From NCBI RefSeq assembly GCF_013122565.1, contig NZ_CP053258.1: DNA of 64,000 bases. One strand, written 5' to 3'. The stretch is from Escherichia coli. GTDB taxonomy: Bacteria; Pseudomonadota; Gammaproteobacteria; Enterobacterales; Enterobacteriaceae. Below are positions 1 to 17,201 of the stretch, piece by piece. The position numbers were made by a program, and so were the translations under genes. Under the pieces are notes generated by a model that did no database searches, was not told where the DNA came from, and saw only the letters and a program-made list of their open reading frames with translations. The first letter of the stretch is position 1, and each line of letters opens with the position of its first letter.

Positions 1-1219
1 CATCAAAGGCGCTGGCATTGTGCTGCGGGCTTTTGTAATAGCCACGGAAGGTGTACGGACCGCGGGTCATCAGGCGTCCAACTTCCCCTTGCGGCAGTGG
101 TTTTCCTTCGGCATCGGCAACCCACACTTCATCGTCCGGACACATTGGGTAACCCTGGGTATGGATAATTTTCTCCGCGCTATCATCAAGTCGGGTGTAG
201 TTCACCAGCCCTTCCGCCATGCCAAACACCTGCTGCAACTGGCAGCCAATCTCAGCGGGAATACGCGCCGCAAGGGTGGCAGAAAGACGTGCGCCGCCGA
301 CCTGTAACAGTTTCAGCGAGGCAAGCTGCGCCCGGCTTTCGCCTTCAGCCAGCGCCTGCAACCACAGGCTGACTGCCGGCGGCACCAGCGCGGTAACGTT
401 AACCTGATGTTTTGCAATCAACGGGAAGCAAAGCGTGGCGCTGGGATCGGCCGCCAGAACAACCGTTCCTCCGGCAAGAAAGACGCCCAGCGATCCCGGC
501 GAACTCATGGCGTAGTTATGAGCCGCCGGGATCGCGCACAGGTAGCGTGTCTGTTGTGTGAACTGACAAATCTCGACGCTACGACGCACGCTGTAGTAGT
601 AGTCGTTATGAGTGCGCGGGATCAGCTTCGGTGTACCGGTGGTGCCGCCGGAAAGCTGGAAATAGGCCACTTCATCAGCAGGTGACGGCATAGCAGTAAA
701 ACCGTCTGCCGGATGGTTAATCGCATCCTGCAAGTTATGCTCACCGCAGTCGTTGTGCAGTTGCACCACGCGAATGGAGGAGTGCTCTGCAACAAATGTG
801 TTGAGGAAATCATCCCCGCTAAATAGCGCATGTTGGCGATCGGCAATCAGTAACGCCGGTTCAATCTGGCTGGCATAGGCGTTCAGTTCACTACGCTGAT
901 GGCTGAACAGCGCCAGCACCGGCGCAACGCCCAGTTTCAGCAGTGCGAAAAAGGTAATATACAATTCAGCGACGTTACCCAGTTGTACCAGCGCGGTTTC
1001 ACCAGGTTTAATGCCCTGACGGCGCAAACTACAGGCGAGGTTATCCGCCGCCTGATTCAGCTCCCGGTAACTCAACTGCCGCTCGCCGTCGATAACCGCG
1101 ATGCTGTCACTCGCAGCATGTCGTGTCAGAATGTCAGTCAATGGCAAATCCTGCCAGTAGCCTTTTTCCCGATAGCGACGGGCAAACTCTTCCGGCCAGC
1201 GGGTAAATGGAATGCTCAT
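1..1219 (-). CDS. entE: 2,3-dihydroxybenzoate-AMP ligase EntE, N-terminal part only (3' end lies beyond window start)
   Basis: Minus-strand frame from ATG (plus cat 1217-1219) reads [25 protein letters not shown]...; no stop before the window edge; sits immediately downstream of entC as in the entCEBA operon. Confidence 0.9.
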
Positions 1220-1228
1220 CCTCGCTCC

Positions 1229-2404
1229 TTAATGCAATCCAAAAACGTTCAACATGGTAGAAAGTTTGACGCCTGTTTCGCGCCACTCACCCAACGGTGA
1301 CGACGCAGGCACAATCCCCGCTCCGGCAAACAGACGCACCTGATTTTCCCGCAGCTTCGCGCAGCGGATGGTCACCACCCATTCGCCGTTACCTTCGCTG
1401 TCACACCAACCCACGATGCCGCCAAACAGTTCGCGGTCGAACGGCTCCAGTTCAGCAATAACCTGGGTCGCGGCCTGATGCGGGAAACCGCTCAGCGCGG
1501 GGGTCGGATGCAGCAGACAGGCCAGAGTCAGTGCGTTTTCTTGCGAATTCGCTTTACCTTCAAAGGGAGTTGCGAGATGCCACAGCGTCGGCGTGGTAAT
1601 CAGCTGTGGACAGGAGGGAACGTGTAACTCACTACTGCGTTCGCGCAGTACCTCTTTCATCGCCTGAGTCACCAGTTCATGTTCATGGCGATCTTTTTCT
1701 GACGCCAGCAGACGATTACCCGCTTCGCGATCGAGCACTTCATCCGGCTGACGACGCGCGGAACCGGCTAACGGAATGGAGCTAAAACGCTCGCCGTCTT
1801 TACGTAGCAGCAGTTCCGGGCTGGCCCCCAGCAGGACGCCACCATCTGCCAACGGCACATGGAAGTTGTAACTAACCGGGTTTTGCGCAATCAACCGTTC
1901 CAGCAATACGCCACTATCAATGGCGGCGTCAGTGGTGATATCAATCAACCGTGACAACACCACTTTGTCGACCTGCGGCGTGGCGGTAAGTGCGGCAGCG
2001 CGAGCAACCATCTGTTCAAACGTGGTTTGTTCCGGAATTGCCTGGCGTTCCACCACGTTCAGCGACTGGCTGCGGGTGAAACGGCGTGCGGAAGCTTGTT
2101 TTTCCTGACGGGAGAACGACTGCCAGGATTCAGGAATATACAGCGACGAAGGCTGACATGGATCGAAGGGAATCGCCCCGACCATCACCGGATTTTTGAT
2201 GCCCTGCGCTTTGGCGTCGGCAAACAGCGCGGCGAGTTTTTGCTGGAAGGGACTGTCGGGCGAATCCCCATTCACAGCCGGTTCATCGAAGCGGGCGAAA
2301 CATCCTGACGTCGTAAAACTGCGGTACGGCGACATAAAGAAAAAGCGATTGGGCGCAAGTGTTGCCATGGTCTGCTGTACTTCCTCAGCCAGTGACGTAT
2401 CCAT
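1229..2404 (-). CDS. entC: isochorismate synthase EntC
   Basis: ORF track 1229..2416; product [23 protein letters not shown]... recognised as EntC; start placed at the internal ATG giving 391 aa (track frame begins 4 codons upstream at a GTG). Confidence 0.92.
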
Positions 2405-2433
2405 ATCATCCTCCACAAAATGATAAAGGCTTT

Positions 2434-2452
2434 AATAATGATTATCATTTAT
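2434..2452. promoter_or_regulatory. Fur box in entC/fepB divergent promoter region
   Basis: aataatgattatcatttat closely matches the Fur consensus GATAATGATAATCATTATC, about 30 bp upstream of the entC start. Confidence 0.6.
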
Positions 2453-2610
2453 ATTTTCGGTCGCTAACCTAAAAGCAAACGCGCACTATGTCAACTCTTG
2501 AGGTAACGCAATCTGCAACTCGGGGTTGCATCTGGTTGTGGTTACAATGAAAATGAGAAGCATTATTGATGGATTCGCATAAGCGCAATGTGATGGCCTG
2601 CGCCGTTCTG

Positions 2611-2708
2611 CCCCCTCTCCCTTCCAGGGAGAGGGCTGGGGTGAGGGTTAATGCTCGCACCAGTGCTGGCTGTTCCCCTCACCCTCTCCCCAAAGGGGCG
2701 AGGGTACG
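2611..2708. repeat. GC-rich nested inverted repeats in the fepB 5' leader
   Basis: ccctctccc..gggagaggg..gggtgaggg then cccctcaccctctcccc..ggggcgaggg: complementary arms able to form alternative stem-loops; a short burst of high GC within an otherwise AT-rich leader. Confidence 0.45.
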
Positions 2709-2772
2709 GATTGTGCGCTTTGTCGAATTTGTCATTACGCCCTTAACCTTATTAATAACAGGAAGCTGATTT

Positions 2773-3729
2773 GTGAGACTCGCCCCGCTCTACCGCAATG
2801 CCCTTCTATTAACAGGACTTTTGCTTTCAGGAATAGCCGTAGTTCAGGCCGCCGACTGGCCGCGTCAGATTACTGACAGCCGGGGCACTCATACCCTGGA
2901 AAGCCAGCCGCAGCGTATTGTTTCCACCAGCGTCACCCTGACTGGCTCACTGCTGGCGATTGATGCTCCTGTGATCGCCAGCGGCGCGACCACGCCGAAT
3001 AACCGCGTCGCGGATGACCAGGGTTTTTTACGCCAGTGGAGCAAGGTGGCGAAAGAACGCAAACTGCAACGGCTCTATATCGGCGAACCGAGCGCCGAAG
3101 CCGTTGCCGCGCAAATGCCGGATCTGATTTTAATTAGCGCAACCGGTGGTGATTCGGCGCTGGCGCTGTATGATCAGCTTTCCACCATCGCCCCGACATT
3201 AATCATCAATTACGACGACAAAAGCTGGCAGTCGCTGTTAACGCAGCTTGGCGAAATTACCGGGCATGAGAAACAAGCGGCAGAGCGGATTGCACAGTTT
3301 GATAAGCAACTGGCGGCGGCGAAAGAGCAAATCAAATTACCGCCGCAGCCGGTCACTGCCATTGTCTATACCGCCGCTGCACACAGTGCCAATCTCTGGA
3401 CGCCGGAATCAGCACAAGGGCAGATGCTGGAACAACTCGGCTTTACGTTGGCGAAATTGCCCGCAGGGTTAAACGCCAGCCAAAGCCAGGGCAAACGCCA
3501 TGACATCATTCAGCTTGGTGGAGAAAATCTGGCTGCAGGGTTAAATGGCGAGTCACTATTCCTGTTCGCCGGTGATCAGAAAGATGCCGATGCTATTTAT
3601 GCCAATCCACTGCTCGCGCACCTGCCCGCAGTACAAAACAAGCAGGTTTATGCGCTGGGAACCGAGACGTTCCGTCTGGATTACTACAGCGCCATGCAAG
3701 TGCTGGAACGACTTAAGGCGCTGTTTTAA
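2773..3729 (+). CDS. fepB: ferric enterobactin periplasmic binding protein FepB
   Basis: 318-aa ORF with GTG start; signal-peptide-like N-terminus [26 protein letters not shown]; sequence recognised as FepB. Confidence 0.93.
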
Positions 3730-3732
3730 GCA

Positions 3733-4983
3733 TTAACCGTCAGACGCTGTCACCTGCGGCGGCGTCTGGCGAAAACGTCGCAACTCCACCAGCACCAGCA
3801 ATAACAACACGCCGATAATCAACAAACCAAAACCGCTCGCGCTTGCGGAAGCAACCGGTGTCATCATCGCTCCCAAACCGCCCAGCAGCGCCGCGCCTAT
3901 GGCATCGCCCGTCACGTTTTGTGCCGTCCACAAACCATTAATCCGCCCTAACATCGCTTCCGGGGTTTGCGTTTGCAGCATTGTATATTGCAGCAACGAG
4001 CTGACCGCACTCAACCAGCCGAACAGCGCCAGACAAACCACGCCTAAAATCCACATCGGCATCAGGCCAAACAGACCAATGGCGAGGAACGATCCCAGCG
4101 TGGAGAGCAGCATCAATAACCCTGGTCGCGCGCTATGCGCCAACTTCCCGCTGGTTAACGCGCCAATAGCCGCGCCGAGCGGGATCGCCGCATAGAGAAA
4201 ACCAATCTGTGCCGCCGACATCTGCCAGTTGTCAGCCAGCGCCGGATACAGTACCCGCACCGCACTCGCCATCGTCAATAAACCACCCAGCAGCGCAATC
4301 CCTCCCACCAGCGGGCTGGCGAGCAGAAAACGAAATCCTGCCAGTAATGATTTCAACGGATGCTCACGCGGCTGCGGTGGTGGTGGCAGTGCCGGAAGGC
4401 TTAACAACGGTAGCAAGGTAATAAACGTGCCCGCCGCCGCCAGTCCGTAGTTCCAGGCCACACCGCCAGTCGCCAGCAATAAACCGCCAATCATGGGCGA
4501 AATCACCGACCCCAGACGCACGGTCAACATGGTGATCGCCCCGGCCTGCATTAAGTTTTCACGCCCTACCAGTGCAGGTGTCGCCGCCAGTAGCGCCGTA
4601 ACGCCAAGTGATGCGAAAAAACCATCCCATAAACCAAGTAAATAGATTGCCAGCAATGACGGTTCAGGCAGCAGTGCATTAAGGCACAGTCCAATGAAGC
4701 CAATGCCACAGGTGCCGCGCGCCAGCAAAATCACTTTTTTGCGTTCATAGCGATCCGCCAGCACACCGCCGACCATCAGGCCAACAAACATCGCGCCGCC
4801 GGTCAGCGTCACCGAAAGCCCCACCTGCCAGGTGGAATGTGTCATCATCTGGATCTGCACCGGCACCGCGACGCCGAGCAAACCCAGAGAAACAATAGAG
4901 ATGAAACGAGCGAGGAATACTGCGCGAAACGCCGGGTGCGTTTTCAACAGGCTGAGGTTAAGCAGCCAGGATTGTTTATTCAT
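3733..4983 (-). CDS. entS: enterobactin exporter EntS (MFS transporter)
   Basis: 416-aa polytopic membrane protein [27 protein letters not shown]...; divergent from fepD. Confidence 0.93.
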
Positions 4984-5056
4984 TACAATGCCTTGCCATC
5001 AAATATTTTAAATACCTATTCTTAGGCTGCACATGCTAACATATCCAAATAAGATC

Positions 5057-5081
5057 GATAACGATAATTAATTTCATTATC
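5057..5081. promoter_or_regulatory. Fur box(es) in entS/fepD divergent promoter
   Basis: gataacgataattaatttcattatc: overlapping GATAAT/ATTATC hexamers typical of Fur sites, between the entS and fepD starts. Confidence 0.55.
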
Positions 5082-5093
5082 ATGGAAGTTCGT

Positions 5094-6098
5094 ATGTCTG
5101 GTTCTGTTGCCGTGACACGCGCCATTGCCGTGCCCGGATTGCTGTTATTACTGATTATCGCGACGGCATTAAGCCTGCTCATTGGGGCAAAATCACTCCC
5201 CGCTTCCGTAGTGCTGGAGGCCTTCTCCGGCACCTGCCAGAGCGCCGACTGCACCATCGTGCTTGACGCGCGACTGCCGCGCACCCTTGCCGGTTTACTG
5301 GCAGGCGGTGCGCTTGGCCTTGCCGGGGCGTTAATGCAAACCCTCACCCGAAACCCACTTGCCGACCCCGGCTTGCTTGGCGTGAACGCCGGAGCCAGCT
5401 TTGCCATTGTGCTGGGTGCGGCGCTGTTTGGTTACTCATCCGCGCAGGAACAACTGGCGATGGCCTTCGCCGGGGCGCTGGTGGCCTCGTTGATTGTTGC
5501 CTTTACCGGCAGCCAGGGCGGCGGGCAGTTAAGCCCGGTGCGTTTAACCCTGGCGGGCGTGGCACTGGCGGCAGTGCTGGAAGGGCTGACCAGCGGCATC
5601 GCCCTGCTCAACCCTGACGTCTACGATCAGTTGCGTTTCTGGCAAGCCGGTTCGCTGGATATTCGCAATCTTCACACCTTAAAAGTAGTACTGATCCCGG
5701 TATTGATTGCCGGAGCAACCGCGCTATTACTGAGCCGCGCGCTGAACAGTCTGAGTCTCGGCAGCGATACCGCAACGGCGCTGGGCAGTCGCGTGGCGCG
5801 CACACAGTTGATTGGTCTGCTGGCGATTACCGTGCTTTGTGGTAGTGCGACGGCGGTAGTTGGCCCGATTGCCTTTATCGGCCTGATGATGCCGCACATG
5901 GCGCGCTGGCTGGTAGGTGCCGATCATCGCTGGTCGCTGCCCGTCACGCTACTTGCTACCCCTGCCCTGCTGCTGTTTGCCGATATCATCGGGCGGGTGA
6001 TTGTGCCCGGTGAACTGCGCGTTTCTGTGGTCAGTGCGTTTATTGGTGCACCGGTGCTAATCTTCCTCGTGCGACGTAAAACGCGAGGTGGCGCATGA
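5094..6098 (+). CDS. fepD: ferric enterobactin ABC transporter permease FepD
   Basis: ORF track 5082..6098 (MEVRMSGS...); start placed at the second ATG (MSGSVAVTRAIAV..., 334 aa); stop overlaps fepG start. Confidence 0.9.
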   Translation: MSGSVAVTRAIAVPGLLLLLIIATALSLLIGAKSLPASVVLEAFSGTCQSADCTIVLDARLPRTLAGLLAGGALGLAGALMQTLTRNPLADPGLLGVNAGASFAIVLGAALFGYSSAQEQLAMAFAGALVASLIVAFTGSQGGGQLSPVRLTLAGVALAAVLEGLTSGIALLNPDVYDQLRFWQAGSLDIRNLHTLKVVLIPVLIAGATALLLSRALNSLSLGSDTATALGSRVARTQLIGLLAITVLCGSATAVVGPIAFIGLMMPHMARWLVGADHRWSLPVTLLATPALLLFADIIGRVIVPGELRVSVVSAFIGAPVLIFLVRRKTRGGA

Positions 6099-7087
6099 TT
6101 TACGTCTCTCGCCGATTAATCATCACCTGTTTGCTGTTGGTTTCCGCCTGTGTGGTTGCAGGTATCTGGGGATTACGCAGCGGTGCCGTCACGCTGGAAA
6201 CCTCGCAGGTATTCGCCGCGCTGATGGGCGATGCGCCGCGCAGTATGACGATGGTGGTCACCGAATGGCGTTTACCACGAGTGCTGATGGCGCTGTTGAT
6301 TGGCGCGGCGCTGAGCGTCAGCGGCGCGATTTTTCAGTCGCTGATGCGTAACCCGCTCGGCAGCCCTGACGTAATGGGCTTTAACACCGGGGCGTGGAGC
6401 GGCGTGCTGGTGGCGATGGTGCTGTTTGGTCAGGATCTGACGGCTATCGCGCTGGCAGCAATGGCGGGCGGCATTGTCACCTCGCTGTTGGTCTGGCTGC
6501 TCGCCTGGCGTAACGGTATCGACACCTTTCGGTTGATTATTATCGGCATCGGCGTTCGCGCCATGCTGGTGGCCTTTAATACCTGGCTGTTGCTGAAAGC
6601 GTCTTTAGAAACGGCGCTAACAGCGGGTTTGTGGAATGCAGGCTCGCTCAACGGCCTGACGTGGGCAAAAATCTCGCCTTCCGCCCCCATCATTATATTG
6701 ATGCTCATTGCCGCTGCCTTACTGGTACGCCGGATGCGCTTGCTGGAGATGGGCGATGATACCGCCTGCGCGCTGGGCGTCAGCGTCGAGCGTTCGCGTC
6801 TGTTAATGATGCTGGTTGCAGTGGTGCTTACCGCTGCGGCAACGGCGCTTGCCGGGCCGATTTCCTTTATTGCTTTAGTCGCGCCGCACATTGCCCGACG
6901 CATTAGCGGCACCGCTCGCTGGGGGCTGACCCAGGCGGCGCTGTGCGGAGCGCTGTTACTGCTGGCGGCCGATCTCTGCGCCCAACAACTGTTTATGCCG
7001 TATCAACTTCCGGTTGGCGTCGTTACCGTCAGCCTCGGCGGTATTTACCTTATCGTCTTGTTAATTCAGGAGTCTCGCAAAAAATGA
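6095..7087 (+). CDS. fepG: ferric enterobactin ABC transporter permease FepG
   Basis: 330-aa membrane ORF MIYVSRRLIITCLLLVSACVVAG...; 4-bp overlaps with fepD upstream and fepC downstream. Confidence 0.93.
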   Translation: MIYVSRRLIITCLLLVSACVVAGIWGLRSGAVTLETSQVFAALMGDAPRSMTMVVTEWRLPRVLMALLIGAALSVSGAIFQSLMRNPLGSPDVMGFNTGAWSGVLVAMVLFGQDLTAIALAAMAGGIVTSLLVWLLAWRNGIDTFRLIIIGIGVRAMLVAFNTWLLLKASLETALTAGLWNAGSLNGLTWAKISPSAPIIILMLIAAALLVRRMRLLEMGDDTACALGVSVERSRLLMMLVAVVLTAAATALAGPISFIALVAPHIARRISGTARWGLTQAALCGALLLLAADLCAQQLFMPYQLPVGVVTVSLGGIYLIVLLIQESRKK

Positions 7088-7899
7088 CCGAATCAGTAGC
7101 CCGTTTGCGCGGCGAACAGTTAACCCTGGGATATGGCAAATATACCGTTGCGGAAAATCTGACTGTAGAAATTCCTGATGGTCACTTCACGGCAATTATC
7201 GGACCAAATGGCTGTGGTAAATCCACGTTACTGCGTACCTTAAGCCGCCTGATGACGCCTGCTCACGGGCATGTCTGGCTGGATGGCGAGCACATTCAAC
7301 ATTACGCCAGTAAAGAAGTTGCACGCCGGATTGGTCTGTTGGCGCAAAATGCCACCACGCCGGGCGATATCACCGTGCAGGAGCTGGTGGCGCGTGGACG
7401 TTATCCGCATCAACCGCTGTTTACCCGCTGGCGCAAAGAGGATGAAGAAGCGGTAACGAAAGCGATGCAGGCCACGGGAATAACTCATCTGGCAGATCAA
7501 AGCGTGGATACCCTTTCTGGCGGACAACGCCAGCGAGCGTGGATCGCGATGGTGCTGGCCCAGGAAACGGCAATTATGCTGCTCGACGAACCCACGACCT
7601 GGCTGGATATCAGTCATCAGATTGATCTACTGGAACTGTTAAGCGAACTGAACCGCGAGAAAGGCTATACCCTGGCGGCGGTGCTGCACGATCTTAATCA
7701 GGCCTGTCGTTACGCCAGCCATTTGATTGCATTGCGGGAAGGGAAAATTGTTGCTCAGGGAGCGCCGAAGGAGATTGTCACTGCTGAACTGATTGAGCGC
7801 ATTTATGGTCTGCGATGCATGATCATTGACGATCCGGTAGCCGGAACGCCGCTTGTGGTGCCGCTCGGACGAACGGCACCTTCAACCGCAAATAGTTAA
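7084..7899 (+). CDS. fepC: ferric enterobactin ABC transporter ATP-binding protein FepC
   Basis: Start at ATG 7084 overlapping the fepG stop (ATGA); Walker A GPNGCGKST and ABC signature LSGGQRQR present. Confidence 0.93.
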   Translation: MTESVARLRGEQLTLGYGKYTVAENLTVEIPDGHFTAIIGPNGCGKSTLLRTLSRLMTPAHGHVWLDGEHIQHYASKEVARRIGLLAQNATTPGDITVQELVARGRYPHQPLFTRWRKEDEEAVTKAMQATGITHLADQSVDTLSGGQRQRAWIAMVLAQETAIMLLDEPTTWLDISHQIDLLELLSELNREKGYTLAAVLHDLNQACRYASHLIALREGKIVAQGAPKEIVTAELIERIYGLRCMIIDDPVAGTPLVVPLGRTAPSTANS

Positions 7900-9029
7900 A
7901 CTAAGTGGTCTGCCATCATGGCATCCTGTTTTCTGGATGCCATCGCATGGCGCAACAGCACACCACCACAAGCCACCATCCCGCCGATCAACGCGGAAAG
8001 GATCACAATAATCGCCTTACCCGGACCGTCTTTTTTCACTGGCAATGACGGGCTTAACTGATATTTAAACGGCGTAAAATTCACATCGTTGACATTTGCT
8101 TTTGTTAATTGCTCGACAAGATACTGACGATTACGTAATTCACCATTCAGTTCCGCAACGTCAGTAACCGCTTTTTCAATTTCCAGTTTGCGTTCAATAC
8201 CGTCTGCGCCGAGAGAAATAGAGAAATCGGGGTCATCTTTAACGGCCTGACCATTACTGTATACGGGCTTTTTAATTCCTGCCGCGTTGGCAATGTCGAG
8301 TGAATAATTGAGGCGCTGAATGTTTGCATCAAGTTGATTTTTCGTTTTAATGCGATCCTGAGCCAGTTTTTCTTTTTCAAACTGGGTTTTGATCTCCAGC
8401 TTATTACGGACGTTTTCTAGCGACTCTTTCACCACCAACGCAGAGATATAATCGATATACCCGCTCAAAACGGTCTGCGCCTCTTCACTGGTTGGCGCGG
8501 TAAAACTTAGCGTCCAGGAGGTATACAGTGACGGTTCATCTTTTTTCTTACTGGCATTGTCATCAACCGCTTTCATTTTTTCGCTCAATGCGACAATTGC
8601 GCGATGCAAATCCAGTTCGTCGATTTTCGCCTCTTTTAATTGGTCCATCACATAAGGTGATGAACGCAGGTACTCTTCCAGCAAGCTAATTGACTGAAAT
8701 TTCTTGATAAACAGATTAAATACACCGCCACGGTCGATATTAACATCGAGATCAAGAACGCGGAGTTTGGTAAAGGTTTTCTCCAGGTCCTGCCACTGAA
8801 TGGCTTCGGCGGGAGTAATGACGGCTGAGCTGGTCCATTTTTGCGGCAGGATGAAAGAGATCAGCAAGCCTGCGCAGGCAAATGCAAAAACGACTGCCAT
8901 GACCGTTTTTTTGGCCCGCCATAAAACTTCGATTAGATTAAGTAAATCAATTTCATTATTACTGGGCGATGCCAGAGGATACTCAGGAAAATGAGCGTCA
9001 CTTCCCTGTTTAATATTCAGTGATGACAT
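7896..9029 (-). CDS. fepE: Wzz-family polysaccharide co-polymerase FepE (O-antigen chain-length regulator)
   Basis: ORF track 7896..9080; start placed at MSSLNIKQGSDAHFPEYPL (377 aa); convergent with fepC with a 4-bp overlap. Confidence 0.9.
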   Translation of the reverse strand: MSSLNIKQGSDAHFPEYPLASPSNNEIDLLNLIEVLWRAKKTVMAVVFAFACAGLLISFILPQKWTSSAVITPAEAIQWQDLEKTFTKLRVLDLDVNIDRGGVFNLFIKKFQSISLLEEYLRSSPYVMDQLKEAKIDELDLHRAIVALSEKMKAVDDNASKKKDEPSLYTSWTLSFTAPTSEEAQTVLSGYIDYISALVVKESLENVRNKLEIKTQFEKEKLAQDRIKTKNQLDANIQRLNYSLDIANAAGIKKPVYSNGQAVKDDPDFSISLGADGIERKLEIEKAVTDVAELNGELRNRQYLVEQLTKANVNDVNFTPFKYQLSPSLPVKKDGPGKAIIVILSALIGGMVACGGVLLRHAMASRKQDAMMADHLV

Positions 9030-9243
9030 GGGTATAACCTGAAAATGAGTCCAATAGGGGAAAATCTCCACGGCGCTCACTTTACCAGTTGGTGAGAATT
9101 ATCCGAAGCTGAAGTTTGTAAATTCCTTCCACTGAATGAAACATTCACTCTATTTAAGAGAAATGACCAACAAACATATAAATTAAATAAATGATTAACC
9201 CATAATTATTTCCTGTAATTATGGGTTAATAGATAATATTAAT

Positions 9244-12200
9244 TTACCTGTTTAGCGTTTCGCGAATAATCGGCCCAATTTTTTCAAACGCCCCTGGAGA
9301 GATAATATCCACATGCGCACAATCCTGACGATAGATATCCAGCCCGGCTATCCACGGCGACCAGGCGCGTTCGGGGCTCATACCTTCCTGAAGCGTACGT
9401 TCAGCAACAAACAGCGTCGCTCTACCATCAAACGGTACGCTATGAGCAGTCGTCAGCAGGCGCACAGCATCAGCGTAGTTGCCTTCAATGGTGGTAAACA
9501 ACTCCGTTGAAGTACTTCCCTGCTGTGCCGCCAGGAAGGCCTCGCGTTCGCGGTTAATCTCCGCCAGCACTTCCGGGTCCAGGCCATTAGCCTCTTTTTC
9601 CTGCCAGTTTTGCGTTTCTGGCGGCCAGGTATCCAGCAAGCCAAGAAATGCCACCTGTTCGCCACGGGCACGCAGTCGCGCCGCAATACCCTGCGCCAGC
9701 GTACCGCCCAGCGAATAACCCAGCAGGTAATAAGGGCCGTGCGGTTGTTGCTCAAGTAACGTTGCCAGATGCGCTTCGCAGACTTCATCCAGATTTGCCG
9801 CGGTCTGCATGGGGCCATTGGGGCGCGGCGACTGAATGCCGATAATCGACCATTGTGGATCGAGATAACGCGAGAGCACGCTGAACTGCCAGGCAAAACC
9901 GGACGCAGGATGGAAACAAAACAGCGTCGGGCCATTACCTTCACGCAACGGCAGAATGGTTTCGAATCCCATGCGCCGGGAGCTGTCCTCTTCACCATCA
10001 ATAATCGTTGCCAGTTTGGCGACGGTTGATGCGACCATCACCTGCCCCGGCGTCACCTGACGGGCAAACTGCCGACTTAACTGCGCTGCCAGTTTCATTG
10101 CCAGTAGCGAATGACCGCCTAGCGCGAAGAAATCAGCATCGGCATCCTGCACGTCACAACCCAGCAACGACGCGAATGCCGCGGCGATAATCGTTTCACT
10201 GCCCGCTTTCGGCGCACGCCCCGGCGCTTGTGCTTTCAGTTCAGGCAACGGTAAGGCTTTGCGATCCAGCTTGCCGTTGGCGCTAAGAGGTAACTGTGGA
10301 AGTTGCAGCAGAACCACGGGCACCATATGTGGTGGCAATGTTTCGCGAAGCTGCGCCTGTAATGCGCTGGTATCCAACGGCAGGCCCGATTGCGACACCA
10401 GATAGCCCACCAACTGACGCGCATCACCACCGGTGGCTGCCGCCTGGTTAATCACACAGGCGTGGGTAACGGCTTGTTCGACACCCGGCAGCGCCTGCAT
10501 CACGCGATCGATTTCGCCCAGTTCGATACGCTGCCCGCGAATTTTTAGCTGATCGTCACTGCGCCCGAGGTATTCCACCGCGCCGTTATCGAGCCAGCGG
10601 GCAACGTCTCCGGTACGGTACATCCGTTCACCTGGGGCAAAAGGATCGGCAATAAAGCGGCTGGCGGTCAGATCGGGTCGTCCAAGATACCCCTGCGCCA
10701 GTTGAATGCCGGTGAGATAGAGATCACCCGCCACACCCGGCGGCACCGGATGCATCATCGCATCGAGAATGCGCAGGCCCGTATTCCACACCGGATAACC
10801 AATCGGCACACTGCTGCCGCGTACCTGTGCCAGTTCCTCGCCAAAGGCCGGATACCAGCTCACATCTACCGCTGCTTCCGTCGGGCCATACAGATTATGC
10901 AACGGCGCGCCGGTTAACTGTTGCCATTCGCGGCATAAATCAGCCGGTAAGGCTTCACCACTACAGAAAACCTGTTTCAACGTCGCGCAACTCTGGCGAG
11001 CGGTTTGCGGCGTCAGCGATGCAACAAATGCCGCCAGCATCGACGGCACAAAGTGCGTGGTCGTTACGCCATATTCGGCAAAGAATTGCTGCATAGCGAG
11101 CGGGTCGCGGTGCGCTTCCGGTTCAGCCATCACCAGTTTCGCCCCGGCAATAAACGGCCAGAAAAACTCCCACACCGAGACATCAAAACTGCACGGCGTT
11201 TTTTGGGCAACGACATCTTCGCCTGTAAGCGGATAATGATTTTGCATCCACAACAGGCGGTTGACGATAGCCGTCTGCCCGACCATTACCCCTTTCGGCC
11301 TGCCGGTGGAGCCAGAGGTAAAGATGATATAAGCCGTGTGATGCGGTTGTGAAAGTTGCAGCGGCGCACTGCCCTGCGGTGTAAGCGGGGCGTTATAGCA
11401 AAGGCTGGTTAAATCTGGAACATCAACAAAGCGCGGCAGTTGATCGTCGGTGGTGATTAACAGCGACGGACGCGCATCTTCCAGCATCATTTTCAGGCGA
11501 TCGTCCGGATAGCCGGTATCCAGCGGTAGCCAGGCCGCACCAGCTTCAACAATCGCATGTAGCGCCAGGGTCAAAAAGACCGAGCGCGGTAATGCCACCG
11601 CCACGCTGTCCCCTGGTTTAACGCCGTGCTCACGCAGCAGATTCGCCAGCGCCACCACCTGCTCGCGCATTTCCCGATAGCTGAACTGGTAACGCGCATC
11701 TGCCAGCGCCGGAGCATCCGGTGTTTTTGCCGCTTGTTCTGCCACCAGCGCGCTAAGCGTGGTTTCTGGAATCTCAACCTGAGTGGCGTTGATCTGCGCC
11801 AGCTGCGCGTATTCACCTGGCAGCATAATATCGACATCGCCGCACAACAGCGCCGGATCCGCGGCGAATTGGGCGATCAGCATTTTCAGGCGTTCAGCAT
11901 GCTGGATTAACGTTGGCTCAGCGTAACGCTGTTTATTGGCGAGGATTTCAATACTCAAATCACCGTGTTCATCCGGGAACAGGGCCAGTTCAAGGTCATT
12001 AACCGGACCGGTTGCCAGGGTATGGGTTTGCGCCTGAACATCAGGAATATCCAGTTGGTAATCAAAGACCTTGATATTGAGTACCGGACCAAACAGGGGT
12101 TCATCACCTGCCGCTCGCCCGCTGTCACGGACAATTTGTTCGGCATCGTAACGTTGATGGCGACGCATTTTTTTCAGTTGAGCCGCCAGTCGGGTTGCCA

Positions 12201-13125
12201 GTTCCGGCAGCGTTTCTTGCGCCGCAATATGAATACCCAACGGCAAAACGTTGAGCACGGGTCCGGTAGCCGTCAGCGCCGCCGAGCCCAGTCGACGCAT
12301 AAAGATAAATCCGGCAGCGTAGTCCATGCGATTGCACAATCGCCCCAGCCACAAAGCCGCCAGCGCAAGGGCTAAATCGGTACGCTGCACACCTGAAAGT
12401 TGCGTAGCCAGCTGGCGGAATTCCCCGTCAGTAAATTCCAGTTTCAGGCGCAGAATATCTGCCGAAGCGCTGCGCCCCGGTAAAGGTGCCGGAGAAAGTG
12501 ACGCGGGCGGCGGCAATTGACGACGCTGTTCCGCCCAGAATGCCGCATCACGCTGCCAGGCTTCGCTTTCGCGATATTGCTGGTACTCTTCCACTACATC
12601 AGCGAAAGGCGTAAACGGCGAAGCAGGCGTTGGTTCGCCACGCAGCCATGCGCAGTAAATATTGGCGATCTGGCGGGTAATGGCCGGGAAACTGAAGCCA
12701 TCGACCAGCAAATGGTGATAACGCTGATACCAGTACCAGCGGTTATCCGCCACCTGTATCAACTGATGAAAGACCAGTGGTTTACCGCTATCGACGCGCA
12801 GATCTTGTTGCAAATCCGCCTGCATTAATGCCTGCGCAGTACCGTGCGGATCAATGTTGGTTCGCAGGTCGATAATTTCTGGCAGTTCGAACGTCAGCGC
12901 ATCATCGACCCACTGCCAGACTTCGCCGTTATCTTCCGTAAAACGCATCCGCAGCGTATCTGCTTGCGCTAATCCGGCAACCACCGCGCGGGCCAGTAAT
13001 GGCGCATCAACCTCTCCGGTTAACTCAACGTAATGCGCCACGCTCCAGGCGGAGGGTAAATCCGACAGTTTTTCTGCCATCCAGATGCCGGGCTGTGCGG
13101 CGACCAAAGGTAAATGCTGGCTCAT
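9244..13125 (-). CDS. entF: enterobactin non-ribosomal peptide synthetase EntF
   Basis: ORF track 9244..13263; start placed at MSQHLPLVAAQPGIW (1293 aa); C-domain motif HHLLVDG, adenylation core TSGSTGRPKG, carrier-protein motif LGGHSL and thioesterase GYSLGG all visible. Confidence 0.95.
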   Translation of the reverse strand: MSQHLPLVAAQPGIWMAEKLSDLPSAWSVAHYVELTGEVDAPLLARAVVAGLAQADTLRMRFTEDNGEVWQWVDDALTFELPEIIDLRTNIDPHGTAQALMQADLQQDLRVDSGKPLVFHQLIQVADNRWYWYQRYHHLLVDGFSFPAITRQIANIYCAWLRGEPTPASPFTPFADVVEEYQQYRESEAWQRDAAFWAEQRRQLPPPASLSPAPLPGRSASADILRLKLEFTDGEFRQLATQLSGVQRTDLALALAALWLGRLCNRMDYAAGFIFMRRLGSAALTATGPVLNVLPLGIHIAAQETLPELATRLAAQLKKMRRHQRYDAEQIVRDSGRAAGDEPLFGPVLNIKVFDYQLDIPDVQAQTHTLATGPVNDLELALFPDEHGDLSIEILANKQRYAEPTLIQHAERLKMLIAQFAADPALLCGDVDIMLPGEYAQLAQINATQVEIPETTLSALVAEQAAKTPDAPALADARYQFSYREMREQVVALANLLREHGVKPGDSVAVALPRSVFLTLALHAIVEAGAAWLPLDTGYPDDRLKMMLEDARPSLLITTDDQLPRFVDVPDLTSLCYNAPLTPQGSAPLQLSQPHHTAYIIFTSGSTGRPKGVMVGQTAIVNRLLWMQNHYPLTGEDVVAQKTPCSFDVSVWEFFWPFIAGAKLVMAEPEAHRDPLAMQQFFAEYGVTTTHFVPSMLAAFVASLTPQTARQSCATLKQVFCSGEALPADLCREWQQLTGAPLHNLYGPTEAAVDVSWYPAFGEELAQVRGSSVPIGYPVWNTGLRILDAMMHPVPPGVAGDLYLTGIQLAQGYLGRPDLTASRFIADPFAPGERMYRTGDVARWLDNGAVEYLGRSDDQLKIRGQRIELGEIDRVMQALPGVEQAVTHACVINQAAATGGDARQLVGYLVSQSGLPLDTSALQAQLRETLPPHMVPVVLLQLPQLPLSANGKLDRKALPLPELKAQAPGRAPKAGSETIIAAAFASLLGCDVQDADADFFALGGHSLLAMKLAAQLSRQFARQVTPGQVMVASTVAKLATIIDGEEDSSRRMGFETILPLREGNGPTLFCFHPASGFAWQFSVLSRYLDPQWSIIGIQSPRPNGPMQTAANLDEVCEAHLATLLEQQPHGPYYLLGYSLGGTLAQGIAARLRARGEQVAFLGLLDTWPPETQNWQEKEANGLDPEVLAEINREREAFLAAQQGSTSTELFTTIEGNYADAVRLLTTAHSVPFDGRATLFVAERTLQEGMSPERAWSPWIAGLDIYRQDCAHVDIISPGAFEKIGPIIRETLNR

Positions 13126-13340
13126 TGTGCCTCCTGCAACTGGGTGAAATTCGACGGTGTCAGAGTACGCCAGTGGGTTTCCAGCCACTGCTGGCAGGAC
13201 GCCTGTGACTGCGGCTGACACACAACGTCCCAGCCTGCCGGTAAGGCGCATTGTTGCGGCCACAGACTGAATTGCCCCTGCGCATTGCGCAAAATGTAAA
13301 ACGCTCCCTGCGGATCATCGAAGGGATTACTGAATGCCAT
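13122..13340 (-). CDS. ybdZ: MbtH-like protein YbdZ
   Basis: 72-aa ORF MAFSNPFDDPQGAFYILRNAQGQFSLWP...; stop overlaps the entF start (ATGA). Confidence 0.85.
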   Translation of the reverse strand: MAFSNPFDDPQGAFYILRNAQGQFSLWPQQCALPAGWDVVCQPQSQASCQQWLETHWRTLTPSNFTQLQEAQ

Positions 13341-13342
13341 AT

Positions 13343-14545
13343 TCAACTCCTGTCATGGAAAAGTGGTTGCCAGAGGTCGATTAGCCCCTGCATCAAGCCA
13401 CCGCGCCAACAAAGCGCATCATGTCCGCCGTCAACCTGACGCCAGAAAATGGATACTTTTATGGGGTGTAATTGCGCATATAGCGCCTGATTGGCCCGCA
13501 TGATCATCGGCTCGCGAATACCCGCTTCCAGCACAATGCGCAGACCTTCGGCGCTAACTTCACCAGCTTTAAGCTTTTCAAGTAACACGCCCTCTTGCTG
13601 CCCGCCCCGGTGCGGCCACCAGTACGATCCTGACTGGCTTAATACACAGCCAAAGCGTTCAGGCCAGTGCAGTCCGGCATACAGCGCGGAAAGCCCACCA
13701 AAACTCTGCCCGGCGACCACGGTGCGATCGGCGCGATCGCTAAAAGGGGCAATAGCTTTCACCAGGGGTAATAACTCTTGCTGTACTGCCAGCCAGAAAT
13801 CCGCATTACACGGCAGTTCGTGGGCGCGATGCGTGGTGTCGATAGCGTCGATCAACACATACACGGCGGGAGGAAGTTGCTGACGATGGGTCAACGAAGT
13901 CAGCGCAGGCCAGACGGGCATACTCTGCGCCCAAAATTCGCCATCAAGCAAAACTGCCAGCGGGCGTTCTTCTGCTGTTGCATCACCGGTGGTAAAAATC
14001 CATACACGGCGTGAATTTTTCAACCGTTCACTTTTCCAGATAATTTCTTTGGCTGGTATTTCTGGCGCTTGCGGACAATCCCATCCCGGTTGCAGAGGCG
14101 CTTGCGGCATTTCGAGTGCAGAAACAGCGTGCCCTCGCCCGCCTTTCCAGCTTTGTGGATTCAGCGGATCGGCTATTGCCTGGGGTAATAGTTTTCGCCA
14201 GCCTTCACGTAATTCGAGGCGATCGGGGGATGGTGCAGAAAAAATGTCATCGCGTTCGGTGGGAATAAAGCAGTAGCTGCCGCGCCAGTTGGCATTGAGT
14301 TGTGTCGTCCACTGCCAGACATCAGTACCTGCAATTCGCTGCATCGACTGGGGCTGGCTGTTCTGATGATGATCGGTCACACCAGTGATGTAGACCCATA
14401 CGCGCTTTATCGTCGAGTATTCTTCAGAACCTTGGGGATCACGCCACCAGAAAGTGACCTCAAACATTTCGTCATTCAGACGCTGCCATTCCGGGCCATG
14501 TTTCGACTGCCACCAGCTCTCACTTCCTACTTTTAACGCCGTCAC
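13343..14545 (-). CDS. fes: enterochelin esterase Fes
   Basis: 400-aa ORF MTALKVGSESWWQSKHGPEWQRL... with GTG start; esterase motif GQSFGG. Confidence 0.9.
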   Translation of the reverse strand: MTALKVGSESWWQSKHGPEWQRLNDEMFEVTFWWRDPQGSEEYSTIKRVWVYITGVTDHHQNSQPQSMQRIAGTDVWQWTTQLNANWRGSYCFIPTERDDIFSAPSPDRLELREGWRKLLPQAIADPLNPQSWKGGRGHAVSALEMPQAPLQPGWDCPQAPEIPAKEIIWKSERLKNSRRVWIFTTGDATAEERPLAVLLDGEFWAQSMPVWPALTSLTHRQQLPPAVYVLIDAIDTTHRAHELPCNADFWLAVQQELLPLVKAIAPFSDRADRTVVAGQSFGGLSALYAGLHWPERFGCVLSQSGSYWWPHRGGQQEGVLLEKLKAGEVSAEGLRIVLEAGIREPMIMRANQALYAQLHPIKVSIFWRQVDGGHDALCWRGGLMQGLIDLWQPLFHDRS

Positions 14546-14593
14546 ACCATAACCCCATGTTTACTGTGCAATTTTTCATTGATTGCAGAAATA

Positions 14594-14628
14594 TATTGAT
14601 AATATTATTGATAACTATTTGCATTTGC
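14594..14628. promoter_or_regulatory. Fur box cluster in fes/fepA divergent promoter
   Basis: tgataatattattgataactatttgcatttgcaatag contains tandem overlapping Fur-type hexamers; hand-placed coordinates, +/- a few bp. Confidence 0.6.
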
Positions 14629-14787
14629 AATAGCGTAATGGCGCGCCGTGGGAAGCGCGGACATTAATTAACCAACTGCACTGCGTGTCTTTCAGGATCA
14701 AAGGCTTTCGCGGTAGCGGGCTGCGTCATGCTGGTGACGCCCCTGCCCGACAGTTGCAATTCGTGGCAAAAATGCAGGAATAAAACA

Positions 14788-17028
14788 ATGAACAAGAAGA
14801 TTCATTCCCTGGCCTTGTTGGTCAATCTGGGGATTTATGGGGTAGCACAGGCACAAGAGCCAACCGATACTCCTGTTTCACATGACGATACCATTGTCGT
14901 TACCGCCGCCGAGCAGAACTTGCAGGCACCTGGCGTTTCGACCATCACCGCAGATGAAATCCGCAAAAACCCGGTTGCCCGCGATGTGTCGGAGATCATC
15001 CGTACCATGCCAGGCGTTAACCTGACCGGTAACTCCACCAGTGGTCAGCGTGGTAATAACCGCCAGATTGATATTCGCGGCATGGGTCCGGAAAACACGC
15101 TGATTTTGATTGACGGCAAGCCAGTAAGCAGCCGTAACTCGGTGCGTCAGGGCTGGCGTGGTGAGCGCGATACCCGTGGTGATACCTCCTGGGTGCCACC
15201 TGAAATGATTGAACGTATTGAAGTTCTGCGTGGTCCGGCAGCTGCGCGTTACGGCAACGGCGCGGCGGGCGGCGTGGTTAACATCATTACCAAAAAAGGC
15301 AGCGGTGAGTGGCACGGCTCCTGGGATGCTTATTTCAATGCGCCAGAACATAAAGAGGAAGGTGCCACCAAACGCACCAACTTCAGCCTGACCGGTCCGC
15401 TGGGCGACGAATTCAGCTTCCGCTTGTATGGCAACCTCGACAAAACCCAGGCTGACGCGTGGGATATCAACCAGGGCCATCAGTCCGCGCGTGCCGGAAC
15501 GTATGCCACGACGTTACCAGCCGGGCGCGAAGGGGTGATCAACAAAGATATTAATGGTGTCGTTCGTTGGGATTTCGCACCTCTGCAGTCACTCGAACTG
15601 GAAGCGGGCTACAGCCGCCAGGGTAACCTGTATGCGGGCGATACCCAGAACACCAACTCTGACGCTTACACTCGCTCGAAATATGGCGATGAAACCAACC
15701 GCCTGTATCGCCAGAACTACTCGCTGACCTGGAACGGTGGCTGGGATAACGGCGTGACCACCAGCAACTGGGTGCAGTACGAACACACCCGTAACTCGCG
15801 CATCCCGGAAGGTCTGGCGGGCGGCACAGAAGGGAAATTTAACGAAAAAGCGACACAGGATTTCGTCGATATCGATCTTGATGACGTGATGCTGCATAGC
15901 GAAGTTAACCTGCCGATTGATTTCCTCGTTAACCAGACGCTGACGCTGGGTACGGAGTGGAATCAGCAACGGATGAAGGACTTAAGTTCCAACACCCAGG
16001 CACTGACCGGAACGAATACCGGCGGCGCTATTGATGGTGTGAGTGCCACCGACCGTAGCCCGTATTCAAAAGCAGAAATTTTCTCGCTGTTTGCCGAAAA
16101 CAACATGGAGCTGACTGACAGCACCATCGTAACGCCGGGGCTGCGTTTCGATCATCACAGTATTGTCGGCAATAACTGGAGCCCGGCGCTGAACATATCG
16201 CAAGGTTTAGGCGATGACTTCACGCTGAAAATGGGCATTGCCCGCGCCTATAAAGCGCCGAGCCTGTACCAGACTAACCCGAACTACATTCTCTACAGTA
16301 AAGGTCAGGGCTGCTATGCCAGCGCGGGCGGCTGCTATCTGCAAGGTAACGATGACCTGAAAGCAGAAACCAGCATCAACAAAGAGATTGGTCTGGAGTT
16401 CAAACGCGACGGCTGGCTGGCGGGCGTCACCTGGTTCCGTAACGATTATCGCAATAAGATTGAAGCGGGCTATGTGGCTGTAGGGCAAAACGCAGTCGGC
16501 ACCGATCTCTATCAGTGGGATAACGTGCCGAAAGCGGTGGTTGAAGGTCTGGAAGGATCTTTAAACGTACCGGTTAGCGAAACGGTGATGTGGACCAATA
16601 ACATCACTTATATGCTGAAGAGTGAAAACAAAACCACGGGCGACCGTTTGTCGATCATCCCGGAGTATACGTTGAACTCAACGCTGAGCTGGCAGGCACG
16701 GGAAGATTTGTCGATGCAAACGACCTTCACCTGGTACGGCAAGCAGCAGCCGAAGAAGTACAACTATAAAGGTCAGCCAGCGGTTGGCCCGGAAACCAAA
16801 GAAATTAGTCCTTACAGCATTGTTGGCCTGAGCGCGACCTGGGATGTGACGAAGAATGTCAGTCTGACCGGCGGCGTGGACAACCTGTTCGACAAACGTT
16901 TGTGGCGTGCGGGTAATGCCCAGACCACGGGCGATCTGGCAGGGGCCAACTATATCGCCGGTGCCGGTGCGTATACCTATAACGAGCCGGGACGTACGTG
17001 GTACATGAGCGTTAATACTCACTTCTGA
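14788..17028 (+). CDS. fepA: TonB-dependent outer-membrane ferric enterobactin receptor FepA
   Basis: ORF track 14728..17028; start placed at MNKKIHSLALLVNLGIYGVAQA (746 aa); TonB-box region DTIVVTA; terminal aromatic residue (..SVNTHF). Confidence 0.95.
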   Translation: MNKKIHSLALLVNLGIYGVAQAQEPTDTPVSHDDTIVVTAAEQNLQAPGVSTITADEIRKNPVARDVSEIIRTMPGVNLTGNSTSGQRGNNRQIDIRGMGPENTLILIDGKPVSSRNSVRQGWRGERDTRGDTSWVPPEMIERIEVLRGPAAARYGNGAAGGVVNIITKKGSGEWHGSWDAYFNAPEHKEEGATKRTNFSLTGPLGDEFSFRLYGNLDKTQADAWDINQGHQSARAGTYATTLPAGREGVINKDINGVVRWDFAPLQSLELEAGYSRQGNLYAGDTQNTNSDAYTRSKYGDETNRLYRQNYSLTWNGGWDNGVTTSNWVQYEHTRNSRIPEGLAGGTEGKFNEKATQDFVDIDLDDVMLHSEVNLPIDFLVNQTLTLGTEWNQQRMKDLSSNTQALTGTNTGGAIDGVSATDRSPYSKAEIFSLFAENNMELTDSTIVTPGLRFDHHSIVGNNWSPALNISQGLGDDFTLKMGIARAYKAPSLYQTNPNYILYSKGQGCYASAGGCYLQGNDDLKAETSINKEIGLEFKRDGWLAGVTWFRNDYRNKIEAGYVAVGQNAVGTDLYQWDNVPKAVVEGLEGSLNVPVSETVMWTNNITYMLKSENKTTGDRLSIIPEYTLNSTLSWQAREDLSMQTTFTWYGKQQPKKYNYKGQPAVGPETKEISPYSIVGLSATWDVTKNVSLTGGVDNLFDKRLWRAGNAQTTGDLAGANYIAGAGAYTYNEPGRTWYMSVNTHF

Positions 17029-17067
17029 TGCTAACGTCAGATTGTTGACAAAGTGCGCGTCGTTCAT

Positions 17068-17164: not shown

Positions 17165-17201
17165 AGTTTTGCGTTTGTCATCAGTCTCTAATACGGTCGA
17201 C

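Follow-up and report, generated by a model that had tools for sequence, protein, structure and literature searches.

Fur operators in the three divergent promoter regions of an Escherichia coli enterobactin cluster

The three intergenic regions of the enterobactin cluster that separate divergently transcribed genes carry sequences resembling Fur boxes, which raises the question of whether these are the Fur operators known from E. coli K-12 and how many operators the cluster holds. The original prediction placed one array of Fur-type hexamers in each region, at entC/fepB (2434..2452), entS/fepD (5057..5081) and fes/fepA (14594..14628), and regarded them as expected iron-regulon wiring: a control rather than a novelty. 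In the window, which is the whole 64,000-nucleotide stretch of DNA that was analysed, positions 1-17933 are collinear with the ent/fep cluster of E. coli K-12 at 96.85% identity, and open reading frames, K-12 annotation and NCBIfam models agree that entC/fepB, entS/fepD and fes/fepA are divergent pairs, with all three predicted sites lying between them. The six flanking proteins were identified by NCBIfam equivalog matches, all above cut-off:

1229-2404, minus strand: entC, NF011591 (EntC), 861 bits, also placed by K-12 collinearity; first gene of entCEBAH
2773-3729, plus strand: fepB, NF008200, 520 bits
3733-4983, minus strand: entS, NF007792, 715 bits
5094-6098, plus strand: fepD, NF007760, 628 bits; first gene of fepDGC
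13343-14545, minus strand: fes, NF007758, 709 bits; first gene of fes-ybdZ-entF-fepE
14788-17028, plus strand: fepA, NF010048, 1281 bits; first gene of fepA-entD

This layout is that of the published system, in which Fur controls the ent and fep genes through three bidirectional regions serving six operons (PMC4911079). None of the three regulatory regions matched a family in an Rfam scan of positions 1-18000, the sole matches being of REP type between fepA and entD.

Fur-type sites in the window and across genera

Sites were scored with a position weight matrix built from eight footprinted K-12 Fur sites outside the ent cluster (fur, tonB, cir, sodA, fecA, fecI and two at fhuF). The top four matches in the 64 kb all lie within the three divergent spacers: 5063-5081 (21.2 bits), 2434-2452 (20.0 bits), 2549-2567 (18.5 bits) and 5057-5075 (17.9 bits). 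With 200 dinucleotide shuffles as the baseline, 0.07 matches per window would be expected to reach 17 bits and 0 to reach 20 bits; the observed numbers are four and two. At a threshold of at least 13 bits, eight matches were observed and 1.2 expected per shuffled window. Sites phased at 6 bp are found at 2416/2422/2428/2434/2440, 2543/2549/2555, 5051/5057/5063 and 14586/14592/14598/14604/14610, and a hexamer-array scan of the window rose well above block shuffles: fes/fepA is among the best arrays, with five-hexamer runs of at least 21/25 from 14586 and from 14592 (block-shuffle mean 0.08). The classical 19-bp Fur box consensus finds only 5063-5081 within three mismatches window-wide, with 0.02 such matches expected. 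Scores at the predicted positions are not weak: 2434..2452 is identical to a matrix interval, 5057..5081 is the exact union of two overlapping matches, so that the two strongest sites in the window are included, and 14594..14628 contains the matches 14604-14622 (12.5 bits) and 14610-14628 (13.35 bits), moderate in score but near-invariant across genera.

Three candidates were not accepted as operators: a 16.7-bit match at 44765-44783 within a FimD-like usher gene; an AT array at 42070-42115, between the ends of two convergent genes; and a 14.9-bit match at 8942-8960 within fepE. All three were rejected because they lie in AT-rich DNA and not at a promoter, and because sites outside the spacers never recur in a comparison set of 80 loci. 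When the three spacers were searched for generic sigma-70 promoters and terminators, only pseudo-promoters derived from the Fur boxes were returned; as this crude scan missed the conserved hexamers of the candidate fepB and fes promoters and the proposed main fepA promoter, it was not taken as evidence.

The comparison set comprised 80 loci from other species of Enterobacteriaceae, with gene starts estimated from the best HSP. Every locus holding both genes of a pair has them in the divergent arrangement (entC/fepB in 76, entS/fepD in 79 and fes/fepA in 63 of the 80), with no case of any other. The three spacers make up 4% of the sequence and hold 303 of the 310 sites of at least 15 bits, the seven remaining sites being non-recurrent. 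In alignments of 16 genera the conservation peaks coincide with the footprints described below, and a survey of 5426 E. coli genomes gave an identity of at least 99% for the aligned operator segments in 4668 to 5293 of them.

Four operators and their candidate promoters

For K-12, four DNase I footprinted Fur regions have been reported in these spacers (Chen et al. 2007, PMC2189734, Table 3). All four are found unchanged in the window (100% identity, 0 mismatches in 197 bp), as against 17 differences from K-12 in the remainder of the three spacers. For this mapping, the published coordinate table was shifted by +777, which we take to be the offset between NC_000913.2 and.3, a value backed by internal consistency only. 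The resulting operators, none of which is assigned a strand, are:

2410..2458: entC Fur operator, homologue of K-12 footprint NC_000913.2 624054-624102, 100% identical
2543..2573: fepB Fur operator, 100% identical to K-12 footprint 623939-623969
5044..5112: shared entS/fepD Fur operator, 100% identical to K-12 footprint 621394-621462
14590..14637: shared fes/fepA Fur operator, 100% identical to K-12 footprint 611868-611915, with a 6-bp-phased array over 14586-14628

The footprints enclose all three predicted sites (PMC2189734), which bears out their description as expected wiring. The list of three was nevertheless one short: the sites it named are real, but it omitted the fepB operator at 2543-2573 (core 2549-2567, 18.5 bits), and since entC and fepB each have an operator of their own, the cluster contains four operators and not three, which is the practical correction to be made here.

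Candidate promoters were read from the sequence as conserved hexamers, and their starts are likewise predicted, save that of fepA, which is taken from K-12 primer extension:

2466..2494, minus strand: candidate entC promoter, -35 TTGACA 2494..2489, 17-nt spacer, -10 TAGGTT 2471..2466
2526..2554, plus strand: candidate fepB promoter, -35 TTGCAT 2526-2531, 17-nt spacer, -10 GAAAAT 2549-2554, predicted start ~2561
14602..14630, minus strand: candidate fes promoter, -35 TTGCAA 14630..14625, 17-nt spacer, -10 TAATAT 14607..14602, predicted start ~14595
14608..14642, plus strand: probable main fepA promoter, -35 TTGATA 14608-14613, -10 TAGCGT 14631-14636, start ~14642

In the entC/fepB spacer, the core 19-mer of the entC operator is 2434-2452 (AATAATGATTATCATTTAT), flanked by weaker 6-bp-phased sites at 2428, 2440, 2422 and 2416; identity across 16 genera is 0.84 within this operator and 0.60 in the rest of the spacer. 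The blocks TGTCAAC and TAACCTAA at the candidate entC promoter are conserved in the same alignment, and from the predicted start at ~2459 the operator would span roughly +1 to +49. The fepB core, 2549-2567 (GAAAATGAGAAGCATTATT), ranks third in the window. Identity across genera is 0.79 in the fepB operator as against 0.60 outside the footprints, CTTGCATC and TGAAAATGAGAAGCA form conserved blocks at the candidate fepB promoter, and most of the 15 other genera examined have a box of the form GAAAATGAGAAGCATTxxx some 25 bp upstream of fepB.

The entS/fepD operator contains two overlapping cores at a 6-bp offset, 5057-5075 (rank 4) and 5063-5081 (rank 1). Its block GATAACGATAATTAnTnTCATTATCA is near-invariant across 16 genera, and identity is 0.81 inside the footprint and 0.67 outside. 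The predicted starts are ~5031 on the minus strand for entS and ~5062 on the plus strand for fepD. For K-12, the model of Chen et al. covers only 54% of the fepD-entS footprint, and this cluster falls downstream of its predicted sigma-70 promoters (PMC2189734).

At fes/fepA, the five phased 19-mers range from 5.1 to 13.35 bits and the best of them lacks window-wide significance, yet no other array is conserved to the same degree: across 16 genera, identity is 0.95 in the operator and 0.45 in the remaining spacer. A matrix that scores single 19-mers under-scores it. Primer extension in K-12 put the predominant fepA 5' end at -146 relative to the start codon (PMC11979758); because the fes-fepA spacer has no indels between K-12 and the window, this position corresponds to 14642, directly 3' of the operator. 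Both proposed fepA hexamers lie inside the operator, within a block invariant across genera, and the candidate fes promoter would be interleaved with them, wholly inside the operator and in the same invariant block.

Whether a single shared box at 2434-2452 could govern both entC and fepB, as its earlier label implied, is a fair question given that one operator is shared in each of the other two regions and that the entC box outscores the fepB site (20.0 vs 18.5 bits). However, the second site lies 115 bp away in the same spacer, where it overlaps the candidate fepB -10 element and predicted start, and is present in most other genera examined; for K-12, 'two distinctly protected regions' were described and handled as separate sites (PMC2189734). 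The entC box is moreover more than 70 bp upstream of the candidate fepB -35 element, which would be too distant for occlusion of fepB, and we consider a single shared box very improbable. Smaller still is the probability we give to the matches being a by-product of AT-rich promoter DNA, in which -10-like TATAAT or UP elements happen to resemble GATAAT repeats without specific Fur function. The spacers are certainly AT-rich (30.6% GC for entS-fepD), and the non-promoter DNA at 42070-42115 and 44765-44783 also gives matches, but shuffles of single spacers that keep their composition reached the observed maximum in 0/2000 cases for entC-fepB and at frequencies of 0.0005 for entS-fepD and 0.013 for fes-fepA. 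Against this reading also stand the identity to experimentally footprinted K-12 operators, the fact that the conserved 16-genus blocks track the footprints and not whole spacers, and the Fur footprint or ChIP signal published at these sites for K-12 and eight other strains.

The remaining alternative is that some sites, above all the weaker fes/fepA array, mainly serve another AT-tract-binding protein or additional regulators, with Fur playing a minor part. The moderate single-site score at fes/fepA would fit this, as would mutations reportedly described by Hunt et al. 1994, said to lie outside the promoter determinants and to affect both fes and fepA, which hint at other components. This must be set against the observations that the fes/fepA block is footprinted by Fur in K-12 (PMC2189734), that it is a top NATWAT hexamer array, that fepA and fes belong to the Fur-1 iModulon and the core Fur regulon (PMC10164565), and that Fur represses fepA-lacZ fusions (PMC4676285): a subordinate role for Fur appears highly unlikely.

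We are therefore left in very little doubt that the sites are the known Fur operators of the enterobactin genes, through which six divergent units would be repressed, and no observation speaks against this explanation. Their presence, above-chance scores, identity to K-12 operators, position between divergent genes and cross-genus conservation are direct observations; in part from the literature, we infer that Fur occupies them in this strain and represses by promoter occlusion. ChIP-exo combined with expression data places the ent and fep genes in the Fur regulon shared by nine E. coli strains (PMC10164565).

An insertion in the fepB leader

One further feature lies in the 5' leader of fepB, where it either follows the fepB operator immediately or overlaps its 3' edge:

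2564..2742, plus strand: nested palindromic repeat, 179 bp

The element contains inverted repeats (RNA fold -90 kcal/mol, z = -3.45). Of 5426 E. coli genomes, 2720, about half, carry at least 80% of it, and partial copies occur at a median of four places per E. coli genome; neither E. albertii nor a further Escherichia locus (L011) nor any of the 15 other genera has it. The entC-fepB spacer is accordingly 368 bp here and about 188 bp without the insertion, and the predicted fepB leader measures about 215 nt instead of about 35 nt. The element, which sits at about +3 of the predicted fepB transcript, provides the 3' edge of the fepB operator, with the final 4 nt of the 19-mer and the final 10 nt of the K-12 footprint belonging to it: set side by side, the cores of the 368-bp and 188-bp spacer alleles read GAAAATGAGAAGCATTATT and GAAAATGAGAAGCATTAAC. 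This insertion is the only part of the whole observation that is not textbook. It might conceivably cause strains to differ in how tightly Fur binds at fepB or in how FepB is controlled post-transcriptionally, a suggestion we offer tentatively and regard as rather unlikely; on this reading the allele of K-12, the strain that served to define fepB regulation, is the derived one.

Proposed regulation and comparison with known systems

With sufficient iron, Fe2+-Fur dimers would bind the AT-rich operators and spread in 6-bp register. As the operators are expected to overlap or abut the -35, -10 or start elements of entCEBAH, fepB, entS, fepDGC, fes-ybdZ-entF-fepE and fepA-entD, bound Fur would block access of RNA polymerase to the six promoters; once iron becomes scarce, Fur would depart and the six units would be derepressed together. 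For entC, fepB, fes, entS and fepD, this overlap is suggested by conserved promoter-like hexamers. Two architectures may be distinguished: at fes/fepA and entS/fepD a single shared operator would cover interleaved opposing promoters, and at entC/fepB back-to-back promoters about 100 bp apart would have one operator each.

None of this is new: these are textbook, conserved and entirely ordinary Fur operators. The value of the locus is that of a positive control, in which gene identities, orientations, start codons and the Fur matrix scan behave as expected, and the approach is thereby validated on one of the best-characterised iron-regulated loci for use on less obvious sites.

Comparison with K-12 reveals near-complete agreement in each region. 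The K-12 fepB-entC promoter-operator regions are those reportedly treated by Brickman, Ozenberger & McIntosh 1990: both footprinted operators (2410-2458 and 2543-2573) are identical here, and K-12 shares the long fepB leader with its 179-bp insertion, which differs here by a few substitutions and a 6-bp indel. For the fepDGC-entS (ybdA) bidirectional promoter, said to have been described by Christoffersen et al. 2001 and Lavrrar et al. 2002, no differences were detected over the 69-bp footprint or the whole 110-bp spacer. The fepA-fes bidirectional control region, reportedly the subject of Hunt, Pettis & McIntosh 1994 and Escolar et al. 1998, has the same divergent genes, an identical 48-bp operator and the same 242-bp spacer free of indels; seven substitutions are found here, all outside the operator and clustered at 14705-14743 in the fepA 5' UTR.

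With regard to binding-site models, 5063-5081 agrees with the classical Fur box GATAATGATAATCATTATC at three mismatches, whereas the fes/fepA operator, at 13.35 bits, fits the picture of an extended hexamer array better than that of a single good 19-mer. Overlapping 6-bp-phased sites, as in the NATWAT hexamer and overlapping 7-1-7 models, are found in all four operators, and Fur sites have been reported to cluster as overlaps in 6-bp (or 3-bp) register (Chen et al., PMC2189734). At entS, where up to three Fur dimers have been reported to bind in K-12, the overlapping 19-mers at a 6-bp offset fit that stoichiometry (PMC2189734).

Gene layout and Fur-site scan

Positions 1-17933 are collinear, in reverse orientation and at 96.85% identity, with NC_000913.3 609348-627288 (BLAST against E. 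coli K-12 MG1655 and ORF listing), and the gene names below were transferred from the K-12 annotation.

Genes of the enterobactin cluster
1229-2404, minus strand, entC
2773-3729, plus strand, fepB
3733-4983, minus strand, entS
5094-6098, plus strand, fepD, followed by fepG and fepC
7896-9029, minus strand, fepE
between fepE and fes, entF and ybdZ
13343-14545, minus strand, fes
14788-17028, plus strand, fepA
after fepA, entD

The NCBIfam equivalog scores of EntC, FepB, EntS, FepD, Fes and FepA are all far above the cut-offs; together with the ORFs and the K-12 annotation, these models place all three spacers (entC-fepB, entS-fepD and fes-fepA) between divergent genes. Region 2300-5300 is found in 5415 of 5426 complete E. 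coli genomes, with a top E. coli match of 98.4%. Collinearity stops at about 17933, at the border of IS186B in K-12, and the strain therefore lacks IS186 beside entD. Beyond this point follow apparent cus- and nfr-like ORFs (named by size only) and then a fimZ/type-1-like fimbrial operon; the DLP12 prophage region of K-12 is probably absent from the window. The fepA-entD spacer holds an Rfam ES036 (CssrF) match at 17102-17143, which with 47.3 bits exceeds the gathering score, and, on the opposite strand, a sub-threshold match resembling naRNA4 (CssrE) at 17057-17098.

Fur sites were scored with a symmetric 19-bp weight matrix (PWM) built from eight K-12 sites outside the ent cluster (fur, tonB, cir, sodA, fecA, fecI and two at fhuF), with site coordinates from the footprints of Chen et al. 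2007 (PMC2189734, Table 3) and sequences from NC_000913.3.

Fur PWM matches in the three spacers
5063-5081, 21.2 bits, best in the 64-kb window
2434-2452, 20.0 bits, second
2549-2567, 18.5 bits, third
5057-5075, 17.9 bits, fourth
14610-14628, fes-fepA, 13.35 bits, rank 7
14604-14622, fes-fepA, 12.5 bits

The original prediction of Fur arrays at three divergent spacers is borne out, the matches coinciding with its intervals almost to the base: the four best in the window all lie in the entC-fepB and entS-fepD spacers, with fes-fepA reaching 13.35 bits. Four sites of at least 17 bits were observed against 0.07 expected from dinucleotide shuffles of the window, and two of at least 20 bits against none; when single spacers were shuffled, the observed maximum was reached in 0/2000 trials for entC-fepB and in fractions of 0.0005 and 0.013 for entS-fepD and fes-fepA, respectively. 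The classical consensus GATAATGATAATCATTATC, allowing up to 3 mismatches, has a single match in the window (5063-5081; 0.02 expected). Positive-scoring 19-mers are spaced by 6 bp in every operator, and Chen et al. describe Fur-site clusters with such a phased pattern (PMC2189734). When NATWAT hexamer arrays were scored instead, 2435, 14586-14598 and 5057 were among the top arrays of the window; the weakness of fes-fepA is thus limited to single-19-mer scoring.

Outside the spacers, a 14.9-bit match (GTAAATCAATTTCATTATT, 8942-8960) lies within the fepE coding region some 70-88 nt past its start, a 16.7-bit match (44765-44783) within the gene of a FimD-like usher, and an extended array of AT hexamers (42070-42115) in the gap between fimZ and a convergent fimbrial subunit gene. 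None of these three is at a promoter and all are in AT-rich DNA; the latter two, which fall in the AT-rich fimbrial region at 40-48 kb (41-48% GC), are probably compositional.

Footprints and predicted promoter anatomy

Published footprint coordinates were converted from NC_000913.2 to NC_000913.3 with an offset of +777, which reflects IS1 and 1-bp differences between the two versions and was checked by internal consistency only, all four converted segments centring on PWM peaks.

DNase I-protected K-12 regions (NC_000913.2; PMC2189734) and their window positions, each at 100% identity to K-12 with this offset
entC, 624054-624102, window 2410-2458
fepB, 623939-623969, window 2543-2573
fepD-entS, 621394-621462, window 5044-5112
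fepA-fes, 611868-611915, window 14590-14637

With this offset, the sequences of the K-12 footprints are present, unchanged, in all three spacers: the window and K-12 show 0 differences in 197 footprint bases, against 17 differing columns in the remainder of the spacers and a coding divergence of about 3%. For entC/fepB, the predicted array at 2434-2452 is real and represents the entC operator, whilst a separate fepB operator (2543-2573, with the 18.5-bit core 2549-2567) had been overlooked.

Candidate promoters, from sequence and conservation; for fepA, from the fit to a start at 14642
entC, minus strand, -35 TTGACA 2494..2489, 17-nt spacer, -10 TAGGTT 2471..2466
fepB, plus strand, -35 TTGCAT 2526-2531, 17-nt spacer, -10 GAAAAT 2549-2554
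entS, minus strand, candidate hexamers TTATCG 5067..5062 and TATGTT 5043..5038
fepD, plus strand, candidate hexamers TGCACA 5028-5033 and TAAGAT 5050-5055
fes, minus strand, -35 TTGCAA 14630..14625, -10 TAATAT 14607..14602
fepA, plus strand, -35 TTGATA 14608-14613, -10 TAGCGT 14631-14636

These hexamers and the starts are predictions, except for the fepA start: the predominant K-12 fepA 5' end is reported at -146 (PMC11979758), which is window 14642. The arrangement suggests that the entC and fepB promoters stand back to back with one operator apiece, the entC operator spanning roughly +1 to +49 from a predicted start at about 2459 and the fepB operator covering the -10 and a predicted start at about 2561. 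The putative fes and fepA promoters appear interleaved, with everything inside a single 48-bp operator, and the fepD and entS candidate hexamers likewise seem to interleave around theirs. Fur represses by promoter occlusion in an iron-responsive manner, and at the ent and fep operators its binding to sites predicted to overlap the promoters would act in this way. The ent and fep genes belong to the Fur regulon common to nine E. coli strains by ChIP-exo and expression (PMC10164565), and Fur represses fepA fusions (PMC4676285).

Conservation and the fepB leader insertion

A FepD-anchored scan with one genome per species gave 80 loci (Escherichia, Citrobacter, Salmonella, Klebsiella, Raoultella, Enterobacter, Kluyvera, Kosakonia, Buttiauxella, Trabulsiella, Phytobacter, Leclercia, Lelliottia, Pluralibacter, Pseudescherichia and others). 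Wherever both genes lay within the fetched DNA they were divergent, without exception (entC/fepB 76 loci, entS/fepD 79, fes/fepA 63). PWM sites scoring 15 bits or more number 310 in these loci; 303 of them fall inside the three spacers, which make up 4% of the sequence, and no such site recurs elsewhere. When 16 genera were aligned with the window, the fraction of them that matched it was 0.95 in the footprint against 0.45 outside for fes/fepA, 0.81 against 0.67 for entS/fepD, and 0.84 (entC) and 0.79 (fepB) against 0.60 in the entC-fepB spacer; the stretch TATTGATAATATTATTGATAACTATTTGCATTTGCAATAGCGTA (14593-14637) shows virtually no variation. Among 5426 E. coli genomes, identity over the aligned operator segment reaches 99% or more in 5293 (entC), 4838 (fepB), 4668 (entS/fepD) and 4951 (fes/fepA).

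Both the window and K-12 have a long entC-fepB spacer of 368 bp, compared with about 188 bp in E. albertii, one further Escherichia genome and the majority of the other genera examined. A 179-bp insertion (2564-2742) in the fepB 5' leader accounts for the extra length. It begins immediately behind the fepB Fur box, about 3 nt past the predicted start, and contributes the final 4 nt of the fepB 19-mer (GCATTATT in the window, GCATTAAC in the short allele). The insertion is a nested palindromic repeat with a strong predicted RNA fold (-90 kcal/mol, z = -3.45): in E. whittamii just the outer ~100 bp is present, its inverted ends corresponding to 2564-2587 and 2714-2737, whilst the window also has an inner GC-rich palindromic unit (~2601-2694). 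Of 5426 E. coli genomes, 2720 carry at least 80% of the insertion, and partial copies occupy a median of 4 sites in each genome; E. albertii and the 15 other genera examined lack it.

Other genera have insertions of their own in these control regions, for example ~170 bp in the entS-fepD spacer (Raoultella, L025), ~120 bp adjoining the entC box (Salmonella, L023) and ~130 bp in the fepA leader (K. indica, L051), with a Klebsiella locus (L028) also among them. As far as the alignments show, in the genera aligned none of these insertions falls within a Fur operator block. In the fepA 5' UTR, a predicted hairpin holds a cluster of seven substitutions relative to K-12 within 39 bp (14705-14743, -83 to -45 from the ATG). 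Elsewhere the fes-fepA spacer, operator included, is identical to K-12, whose fepA 5' UTR is reported as a hub of sRNA control (PMC11979758).

Relation to the K-12 system

We found no departure from the known K-12 Fur/ent-fep family. The enterobactin Fur operators of the window are already known and serve as a positive control, in agreement with their original description as expected wiring and an internal control rather than a novelty: the control regions fepA-fes, fepB-entC and fepDGC-entS of K-12 are the same system, and its operators are sequence-identical in the window.
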